Of a stretch of 64,000 nucleotides of DNA, positions 1 through 3,000 are shown one piece after another. The position numbers were made by a program. This stretch comes from a virus. Taxonomy: Duplodnaviria; Heunggongvirae; Uroviricota; Caudoviricetes. Within the stretch, counting starts at the first letter, position 1, and each line of letters starts with the position of its first letter. The stretch is taken from the IMG/VR virus record IMGVR_UViG_2541047426_000030; one strand, written 5' to 3'.

Positions 1-3000
1 ATGGACAACGACAAAATTGATCAACACAGCGACGAAATTGAAGTTGAGAGCGAAGAAAAAGAGCGTGGCAAAAAAATAGAAATAGATGAAGATCGACTCC
101 CCTCCCGGGCGATGGCAATTCATGAGCATATCCGCCAGGATGGTGAAAAAGAGCTGGAACGCGACGCAATGGCACTACTGTGGTCAGCCATTGCGGCGGG
201 TCTGTCGATGGGCGCTTCATTACTGGCAAAAGGGATATTTCATGTCGAACTGGAAGGTGTGCCGGGCAGCTTCTTGCTGGAGAATCTCGGTTATACCTTT
301 GGTTTTATTATCGTCATTATGGCCCGCCAGCAATTATTTACCGAAAACACCGTGACTGCGGTACTACCCGTCATGCAAAAACCGACAATGAGCAACGTTG
401 GCTTACTTATGCGGTTATGGGGCGTCGTGCTGCTGGGTAATATTCTCGGGACAGGTATTGCGGCGTGGGCATTTGAATATATGCCAATCTTCAATGAAGA
501 AACTCGCGATGCATTTGTCAAAATCGGCATGGATGTGATGAAGAACACCCCCAGCGAGATGTTTGCCAACGCGATCATTTCCGGCTGGCTGATCGCCACT
601 ATGGTATGGATGTTTCCTGCAGCGGGTGCGGCAAAGATTGTGGTGATTATATTGATGACCTGGCTTATTGCCCTGGGTGACACCACTCACATCGTTGTCG
701 GTTCTGTTGAAATCCTCTATCTGGTGTTTAACGGTACGCTGCACTGGAGCGATTTCATCTGGCCCTTCGCACTACCTACTTTAGCGGGGAACATCTGCGG
801 CGGCACCTTTATCTTCGCGTTAATGAGTCATGCACAGATCCGTAACGACATGAGCAACAAGCGCAAAGCAGAAGCACGCCAAAAAGCAGAACGTGCGGAA
901 AACATTAAGAAAAATGATAAAAACCCGGCATAAATGGCGAGGGTTTAAGCAATCGAGCGGCAGCGTACTTACCCCGCAGTCCATTAGCGGGTATACTCAT
1001 GCCGCATTGTCCTCTTAGTTAAATGGATATAATGAATATAAGTATTAAGTCATTGATTTAAATACAGAAAGTGGCGAAATAATCGTCATATCAGTACCCA
1101 TTTATGTACACACCCCGTTAAGCATGCCCCGCACTTCCGTACGGGGCATGTTCTTTACTCCACTCCCACTTTTTTGTTGTACTCGCGGTTAAACCGATCC
1201 ACGGCAATTTTCATATCCCGCTCAACCGATTTCACCATCGCCGACTGTTGCGCCAGACTGAGAGTACTGTCGGCGTAAATGGCATCACGCTGTTTACGCA
1301 AATCCTTCAGTCTCTTCCGGGTATCCTGCATAAGCCCGTTCATCGACAATTTTCCGTTGTTCTCGTCAATGAACGCCGTTCTTTCTGCACCGGTCAGACT
1401 CTTCAGCTCTGCGTGATACTGCGCAACCTCTGTCATCCGGTCGTACATCTTCTGCTGGTCAGCATACGGCATCACCTCACCTGAAATTTTCCCCAGGAAG
1501 GGCACCTGCTGCTCCGGTATATCAATACCGTTCAGCGATTTCACCGCCGCATCCGTGGTTTTGGAAATGAAGCGCCCTGTCCCTCCGGAGATATAGTCAA
1601 TCCAGTATTTCAGTGATTCCGGCGTGACATCCACCGCACCGGAACGGTACTGGCTGCCACCAGAGAACGCATTCAGCCAGGATGCAAACGCCTTGTACGC
1701 TTCTGGCGTTGAACGTCTTCCCAGCTGGCTGTCAGGTTTTGGTGTACCAAACGGCATGTTCTCCTGGTAAATCTGCGCCCCCATGAAGTTTTCGTTCATG
1801 GCAAGATTCGCAAACGGACGCAGAATTGTCGGTGCTGCATTTTTCAGCAATGCCCCGGACAGTGTTTCCGACGTTTCACTGCCCACAGGACTGAATGCCC
1901 CAAGCACACCACCAACAACATTACCGGCAGCACGTGAAGCGGTCAGGTCGCCCGCTGCCACCCCTTCGGCTGTGTGACCAAGCAGGAAGAAAACGTTGTA
2001 CCCGTAAGGCAGAGGAATACTCCAGTACTCTCCGGCCTTGCCCCCGAACACCGATTTCATAATGACGAGGTTACGCTCTTTCACATGAGACGGCACCTTG
2101 TCATACCAGTTAACCCCGTCATCATCCTCCCCCGCAACACTGCGGTTAAGCGAGCCAAGCAGATAACCCGCTCCCACAGCTGCAAGCGCGATTTTCTGCG
2201 GTACATTGAGATTCTTCCAGCGAAGGCGCTCCAGTAACGGCCCGTCGCCATTAAGATGTCCGAGCGTTCTCACCAGGTTTGCGGTCCCCTGAATGCTGGC
2301 GTTGGCGAACATGTACAGCGAGTTCATCAGCGCTCCCTGCTCACCACGACGGTTAAAGTTCACCGTCATGTTTTTGGCAAGAGACGCCGCCTGCTGGCGT
2401 GACAAACCGGCATCACGGGCGTGTTTATAGGCAGAAAGACGCAGAGCGTTTTCAACCGCCCCGTTGGCATCCTCGACAAGGTTAAGGAACGAATTCCATG
2501 CACCGATACTCTGGCCTTTCCATCCTCCCTTCGCCAGCGATACAAGGCGATCCATTTCCTTCTGCTGGCCTTCAAGGTCACCCATGTTAAACCAGCCGGT
2601 TTTACCTCCGTCCTCAACAAACTCTTTCCACACCTTCTGCCACTGTGCACCTTTTCCCGTGAGGGTTTTACCACGCAGACTGGCGTATACGGCTGACATG
2701 GCAGAACGGCTGTCTTTCACCACAGCCAGGGCGGATAAGTTATCCAGCCCTTTCAGTTTACCGTCGCTCCTTCCCTGCTCCGCCTTCAGGTTCATCACCG
2801 CCGTCTGCACGTCACGGATGAAGTTACTGACCAGGAATTCCGGGTTATACGACGTGTTCACCGTTGCCAGGAAGCGGTTAACTTTCCCCAGCGTACGAAC
2901 AAAGGCATTGCTGGTTTCCGGTCCCATATTCTTCATCGCACGCATCAGGCGCGGATCATGGAGTTTGATGTAGTACGTTTTGCCGTTCTTTTTGGTGGTG

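Follow-up and report, generated by a model that had tools for sequence, protein, structure and literature searches.

An int-distal attachment junction of a Stx2a prophage in the 5' part of argW

The yfdC side of the junction and the end of the late region

We analysed a window of 64,000 nucleotides, the whole stretch taken from the virus record IMGVR_UViG_2541047426_000030. Its first 10 kb hold the following features (window coordinates):

1-933, plus strand: yfdC (ORF; annotation in matching genomes)
969-997, plus strand: putative native argW promoter, TTACCC-17-TATACT (read by eye; identical in the uninterrupted K-12 locus)
1008-1032, plus strand: common core of the attachment sites, 25 bp (identical at both prophage ends; four-way alignment of att sites; GenBank KP682371)
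1033-1117, plus strand: P' arm, argW-specific phage DNA of the integration module (joined without a break to the core and the P arm in virion-derived genomes, at 100%)
1093-1111, plus strand: candidate pair of arm-type integrase-binding sites, AGTACCC ... ATGTACAC (conservation in four attP sites; TGTAC motif in the P arm; Arm-DNA-bind_3 domain of the integrase)
1121-1152, no strand assigned: G+C-rich hairpin (fold z-scores; conserved in phage 86 and common to wrbA-type phages)
1155-9575, minus strand: giant last gene of the late region (ORF of 2806 aa; 2791 aa and 'LPD38 domain-containing protein' in PGAP; LPD5/LPD38 in phage records)

The yfdC gene belongs to the formate/nitrite transporter family and represents the host flank upstream of argW; it is annotated in every matching genome. 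It is followed after 75 nt by GTCCTCTTAGTTAAATGGATATAA (1009-1032, plus strand), which occurs nowhere else in the window and gave no match in 100 shuffles. These 24 nt are exactly argW nt 1-24, and in K-12 they form the start of the annotated 75-nt tRNA-Arg after yfdC. The first-pass annotation had recognized about 24 nt of the argW 5' end at this place, and the match is exact. According to our own folding of the 75-nt sequence, nt 1-24 span the 5' acceptor strand, U8-A9, the 5' D-stem strand, the 8-nt D-loop, and three of the four bases of the 3' D-stem strand.

The match to argW ends at 1032, and the sequence differs from argW from 1033 on. ARAGORN detected no tRNA at 1009-1085, its sole calls in the window being three phage tRNAs at 40972-41223, and a search of 800-1400 against Rfam with E-values up to 10 returned no known RNA family, only noise far below threshold (snoRNA, miRNA, and ClpQY). 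In all 5426 complete E. coli genomes the yfdC-side match reaches window position 1032-1035. Past this point 209 of the 5426 run on into the same phage sequence, and among the matches listed, the genomes that end there have tRNA-Arg annotated beneath the match. The earlier reading that homology stops here, with the remainder of the tRNA gene missing, is confirmed by the common breakpoint and by both tRNA searches.

On the phage side, the inverted repeats CATGCCCCG (1123-1131) and CGGGGCATG (1142-1150) form the arms of a hairpin whose predicted stem reaches the borders given above. It folds with -21.1 kcal/mol on the plus strand (z -5.7) and -25.3 kcal/mol on the minus strand (z -4.6), and none of 200 shuffles was as good. 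The stem lies 4 nt beyond the stop codon (1155-1157, minus strand) of the 2806-aa ORF. A palindrome after the stop of the giant ORF had been noted before at about 1125-1152; the palindrome is real and its coordinates were 2 nt off. Stx phages that integrate at wrbA (VT2-Sakai, PA16, and others) show homology to the window only from about 1118 or 1126 on, and we therefore delimit the argW-specific P' arm as 1033-1117. Judged by these comparisons, the hairpin is part of the conserved end of the late-gene module and not of the att module. The hairpin probably lies at the 3' end of the late transcript, and it may terminate transcription in both directions. Only the plus strand has a T-rich tail (TTCTTTAC) after the stem; no T-run is present on the minus strand, which is the strand of the late operon. 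A consensus terminator scan of 850-1350 found no terminator and did not call the hairpin.

The other prophage end and the assembled attachment site

The 25-bp block recurs beside the integrase gene (int) at three of the loci compared, and there the rest of argW comes next. Beyond the 24-mer the two junctions share one nucleotide (T) leftward and none rightward, which gives the 25 bp in common. We aligned four sites: the attB of K-12, both prophage junctions (window and int-proximal), and a virion attP. The four-way alignment, which had been proposed as a check with the uninterrupted yfdC-argW locus and the other prophage end, is exact and resolves into B-O-B' (attB), B-O-P' (window), P-O-B' (int-proximal), and P-O-P' (attP). 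The core corresponds to argW nt 1-24 and thus lies in the 5' portion of the tRNA gene, as suspected. An attP that we assembled from the two junctions is found unbroken, with 100% identity over 724 nt, in the virion-derived genomes of vB_EcoP_phi345, phi346, phi349, and vB_EcoS_P27, and shows 94.5% identity to Stx2 phage 86. The attB is uninterrupted (yfdC-argW) in K-12 and the other genomes listed.

The first-pass annotation had placed an intact argW, if there was one, at the int-proximal end outside the window, and it was found there in E. coli CEC01311, in TR01, and in the laboratory lysogen WG5::PA2. CEC01311 is collinear with the window at 100% over 1-25000 and 61000-64000. It encodes a 389-aa tyrosine integrase (minus strand), followed 195 bp later by the intact tRNA-Arg and then by intS, so that its argW corresponds to window-equivalent positions of about 67009-67083, about 3.0 kb beyond the window end. 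TR01 has the same layout, with the intact argW adjoining int. At the int-proximal end of WG5::PA2, int and an intact tRNA-Arg are found beside dsdC, with the prophage between the early region and argW-dsdC, and ARAGORN predicted an intact tRNA-Arg(CCT) at this junction. The integrase, P arm, and core are present in 210 genomes, and among the matches listed a tRNA-Arg is annotated there in 29 of 30.

We conclude with a probability of about 0.96 that window positions 1008-1117 are the int-distal attachment junction (host arm B, core O, and P' arm) of a short-tailed, 933W-like lambdoid Stx2a prophage of about 66 kb. No evidence against an att junction was found in this analysis. The genes stx2A and stx2B are located at 39641-40881 (minus strand), downstream of the three phage tRNA genes. 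The naming of the junction varies, being attR in the GenBank record of PA2 and the 'left' junction in some typing papers.

This junction is already known and annotated, and it is ordinary apart from the use of the 5' instead of the 3' part of the tRNA gene. The 25-bp attL/attR annotated in phage PA2 (GenBank KP682371) are identical to the block at 1008-1032, and a 24-bp att has been given for prophages at argW (bioRxiv 10.1101/2024.03.06.583675). The primers argW-A and argW-B, which yield a 583-bp 'phage-argW right junction' product (PMC3519850), map to window positions 840-861 and 1401-1422, with a predicted product of the published 583 bp. The same junction is targeted in PMC8309913, whose primer argW-inR matches 1180-1201 by our own reading. 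The Stx2a phages integrated at argW, of the phage sequence types PST2/PST3 (Yin et al. 2015), include PA2, PA8, PA28, VT2phi_272, ArgO145, and Stx2a_F451. The P' arm, core, and end of the giant ORF of these phages are identical to those of the window (100%) and their integrases are 99.5-100% identical. The junction shows no difference, and IS content and length (about 66 kb versus 63.6 kb in the PA2 record) are all that sets the window prophage apart. Occupancy of argW by Stx2a phages is a standard typing marker of O157:H7 that is linked to clinical lineages, and the junction delimits the prophage in assemblies.

In our integration model, a heterobivalent tyrosine integrase, encoded at the opposite prophage end outside the window, recombined argW with an attP ordered as P arm, 24-25 bp copy of argW nt 1-24, and P' arm. 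Since the block in common belongs to the 5' side of the tRNA gene, insertion takes place ahead of the argW body. The putative native promoter and argW nt 1-24 remain beside yfdC, joined to the phage P' arm, and the full 75-nt argW is rebuilt about 66 kb away, from phage-borne nt 1-24 and host nt 25-75. In four attP sites, the stretch identical to the tRNA runs without exception from nt 1 to nt 22-24. As the left boundary (nt 1) looks fixed by the need to rebuild the tRNA, we infer that strand exchange takes place near the D-loop end of the block. A search by eye for inverted core-type sites around the D-loop gave none that was convincing.

Two other explanations for the truncated gene were considered. 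The prophage could have integrated elsewhere, for example at the argW 3' end, with a later deletion or recombination that removed argW nt 25-75; a rearranged junction had also been named as the alternative in the first-pass annotation. Most tRNA-integrating elements leave a 3' and not a 5' fragment at their distal end, and an IntS-type element does occupy the argW 3' end in TR01 and CEC01311. Against this history, the same 25-bp block precedes the intact argW at the other end, and the two junctions are common to 209-210 genomes. A rearranged junction is excluded because P arm, core, and P' arm are contiguous at 100% in virion-derived genomes, and both the exact four-way alignment and the 209 genomes that share the window junction agree with this. 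Since the laboratory lysogen WG5::PA2 shows the same structure at its int-proximal end, the arrangement is attributed to site-specific integration, and we give integration elsewhere followed by deletion almost no chance. Slightly less improbable, yet still very hard to maintain, is tRNA-dependent lysogeny (described in PMC10865867), in which argW would be destroyed and phage tRNA genes would compensate for it, as in mycobacteriophage Fionnbharth. It would account for the truncated argW at the window junction, and two of the three tRNA genes of the phage do encode tRNA-Arg. Their anticodons are TCT (Arg) and TCG (Arg), next to CAT (Met/Ile), but none is CCT, and a complete 75-nt tRNA-Arg(CCT) is rebuilt at the int-proximal junction according to both ARAGORN and the record annotation. 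The common core of 24-25 bp, which begins exactly at tRNA nt 1, also speaks against the loss of the gene.

The integrase family and a promoter-like element in its P arm

The 389-aa integrase contains the domains Arm-DNA-bind_3 and Phage_integrase, and its gene starts 195 bp from the rebuilt argW, outside the window. Relatives with 61-91% identity were found across Enterobacterales and Orbales. In 31 of 54 loci that encode a relative, int and a tRNA-Arg(CCT) gene diverge, and about 195 bp (174-207) separate the start of int from the 5' end of the tRNA. These 31 loci, mostly with integrases of at least 65% identity and including two partial matches, represent at least 15 genera, among them Erwinia, Enterobacter, Pantoea, Brenneria, Xenorhabdus, Providencia, Proteus, Morganella, Salmonella, Tatumella, Rosenbergiella, Rouxiella, and Arsenophonus. 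More distant relatives of about 55-57% identity (mEp234, HK544, Stx2a_WGPS6, and loci L037-L041) lack a tRNA in their vicinity; they use a different site, and the family comparison leaves them out. Given that the tRNA-Arg(CCT) gene is so placed in the 31 loci and that relatives of about 55% lack a nearby tRNA, we consider the site at the 5' side of argW a trait of the family.

To compare the arms we used the 31 spacers between int and tRNA for the P arm and four full attP sites: those of the E. coli PA2 type and of phage 86 and, to represent other genera in the P' arm, those of the two virion genomes Hafnia phage yong2 and Pantoea phage AH07. At its int end, the P arm contains three TGTAC(A/T/G)C repeats and GGCAAGTGAAC, which are conserved in about 31 related elements amid otherwise diverged DNA. 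In the P' arm, AGTACnC...ATGTACAC is the only block conserved among the four attP sites. The TGTAC-type repeats of both arms are putative arm-type sites of the integrase.

Closer to the tRNA, the P arm of all 33 elements has a TTGnnn-18 nt-TAnn(A/C)T element that is aimed at the tRNA gene. The distance from the end of the second hexamer to tRNA nt 1 is 38-39 nt in 32 of the 33, and the same pattern at the same distance was found in 0.7% of shuffled spacers. The E. coli copy, TTGATT-18-TATTAT, which lies outside the window, was also picked up by the single-sequence scan. We think it probable that this element is the promoter that supplies the rebuilt argW, because the bases that matter most for recognition by sigma-70 are the invariant ones, whereas the spacer sequence and the flanks vary.

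On the window side, the consensus promoter scan of 850-1350 did not call the native element at 969-997, which matches the -35 consensus in three of six positions. The same scan returned one weak promoter-like site on the minus strand (1062-1035), at chance level. The orphaned native promoter-like sequence would now point into the prophage end, that is, into 24 nt of tRNA and the P' arm. Speculatively, a plus-strand transcript from it could stop at the 1121-1152 hairpin, with its T-rich TTCTTTAC following.

Taken together, the attP of this family could carry a dedicated sigma-70 promoter (TTGnnn-18-TAnnAT), kept in 32 of 33 elements that represent more than 15 enterobacterial genera, so that every lysogen would transcribe its only tRNA-Arg(CCU) gene from element DNA, and the native promoter would give rise to a hybrid transcript of about 150 nt (tRNA nt 1-24 and P' arm) that ends at 1121-1152. 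We put the chances for and against this combined reading at about equal. No description of such a promoter swap was found in the literature searched, and the conserved promoter-like element of the P arm, possibly unreported, is one addition to the known picture.

The TTG-18-TAnnAT element might instead be a site for a recombination protein (IHF or Xis), with the rebuilt argW transcribed by read-through or poorly expressed. Sites for IHF and Xis are usual in attP arms, TTGAT on the opposite strand resembles part of the IHF consensus, and nearby direct repeats of the GAACAA type look like sites of a recombination directionality factor. In K-12, moreover, argW is dispensable. What we see is, on the other hand, a pattern expected for a selected sigma-70 promoter while its surroundings diverged: an invariant TTG, invariant T1, A2, and T6 of the second hexamer, an 18-nt spacer, and the fixed distance of 38-39 nt in 32 of 33 elements versus 0.7% of shuffles. 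A recombination-protein site is therefore the unlikelier of the two roles, though one that keeps some weight, and we favour the promoter.

Comparison with other integration systems

The classical sublocations of integration in tRNA genes, as Williams is said to have defined them in 2002, are the anticodon loop, the T-loop, and the 3' end. As in these cases, the element described here carries the part of the tRNA that it displaces and the gene is rebuilt. Here, unlike there, the duplicated part is the 5' portion, and for this reason the element must also provide the upstream sequence of the tRNA gene. The block of nt 1-24 and the 5' fragment at the distal end do not agree with a sublocation on the 3' side. 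They agree with the 5'/D-loop sublocation, since the element sits on the upstream side of the tRNA body and its core takes in the 5' acceptor strand together with the D-stem and D-loop.

Islands and prophages of Klebsiella at the 5' end of arg2A use a site that comprises the 5' acceptor strand, D-stem, and D-loop, which was named a novel D-loop sublocation (bioRxiv 10.1101/2020.11.02.365908). Going by the description of the site, these elements (clade I.d) resemble the window prophage in the core region that is used and in their position upstream of the tRNA body. Integrases from Klebsiella, including Klebsiella phages, are 86% identical to that of the window prophage, and the elements differ in host species and cargo. 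The same study noted Klebsiella strains in which both ends of the tDNA are occupied, each by its own element, and TR01 and CEC01311 show a similar double occupancy, with an IntS-type remnant at the argW 3' site.

IntS of KplE1/CPS-53 and P22-like phages at the argW 3' end share with the window prophage the target gene, an arm-binding tyrosine integrase, and the position of int beside the tRNA. They differ in that IntS uses a 17-bp site at the argW 3' end (record MN340231) and int lies downstream of the gene. Phage phiv205-1 (MN340231) was considered as another user of the 5' core and was rejected, as the record holds yfdC, an intact argW, and an IntS-type prophage at the 17-bp 3' site. With dusA-specific integrases (PMC4482086), integration is likewise into the 5' end of the target gene, which the element replaces, and these systems differ from the present one in their protein-coding target and in the integrase family.

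The 5' and 3' sites of argW do not overlap, and both can therefore be occupied simultaneously. The 5'/D-loop sublocation thus lets two elements share one tRNA gene, a Stx2a phage at the 5' side and an IntS-type element at the 3' side. If the promoter in the P arm is functional, expression of the host tRNA would pass to the prophage in every lysogen.

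Late genes, toxin genes and insertion sequences

The late region of the Stx2a prophage ends with a giant gene (2806-aa ORF), for which the sole annotation is LPD38/LPD5 domain-containing protein and which is common to the short-tailed Stx phages that integrate at argW and at wrbA. Three phage tRNA genes are encoded directly upstream of the toxin genes; these are Arg-TCT, Arg-TCG and one with a CAT anticodon, assigned to Met by ARAGORN versus Ile by PGAP.

Window 1155-9575, - strand: giant ORF, last late gene
Window 39641-39910, - strand: stx2B
Window 39922-40881, - strand: stx2A
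Window 39641-41223, - strand: stx2B and stx2A with the three phage tRNA genes

Otherwise identical prophages vary in IS content (window 1-25000; L003, the int-proximal end of lysogen WG5::PA2, 10637-11850). ISEc8 (IS66-like) is annotated inside the first 25 kb in genomes collinear with the window, TR01 instead carries IS1203 in a structural gene, and the MT-A70 methyltransferase gene of WG5::PA2 carries IS1203.

Occupancy of both ends of argW

TR01 (L002 13805-15198) and CEC01311 (L067 3849-5242) carry elements at both ends of argW. The Stx2a phage occupies the 5' site in both genomes, and an IntS-type element (P22-like remnant) occupies the 3' site, immediately downstream.

Promoter-like elements and repeats in the P arm

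Three features were located outside the window in the P arm, between int and the rebuilt argW.

L006 1668-1779: three direct GTGAACAA/TGAACAAAA repeats
L003 14129-14200, - strand: site upstream of int resembling a promoter, TTGCCA/TTGCTA-17/18-CA(G/T)AAT
L003 14255-14284, oriented toward tRNA-Arg(CCT): TTGnnn-18-TAnnAT promoter-like element

The direct repeats, partially conserved across genera, sit between the core and the arm-type sites and could be binding sites for an excisionase (recombination directionality factor). The promoter-like site upstream of int, on the opposite strand to the tRNA-facing element, is overlapped by TGTAC repeats (candidate arm-type Int sites), which suggests that Int may autoregulate its gene, similar to the autoregulation reported for KplE1 IntS (PMC2951348).

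Besides L003, the tRNA-facing element occurs at the corresponding place in L009-L060, L063 and L064; it is conserved in all 33 related elements examined. Its distance to tRNA nucleotide 1 is constant at 38-39 nt in 32 of the 33 (0.7% of shuffles). This conservation at a fixed distance suggests that the promoter of tRNA-Arg(CCT) after integration would be supplied by the integrated element.
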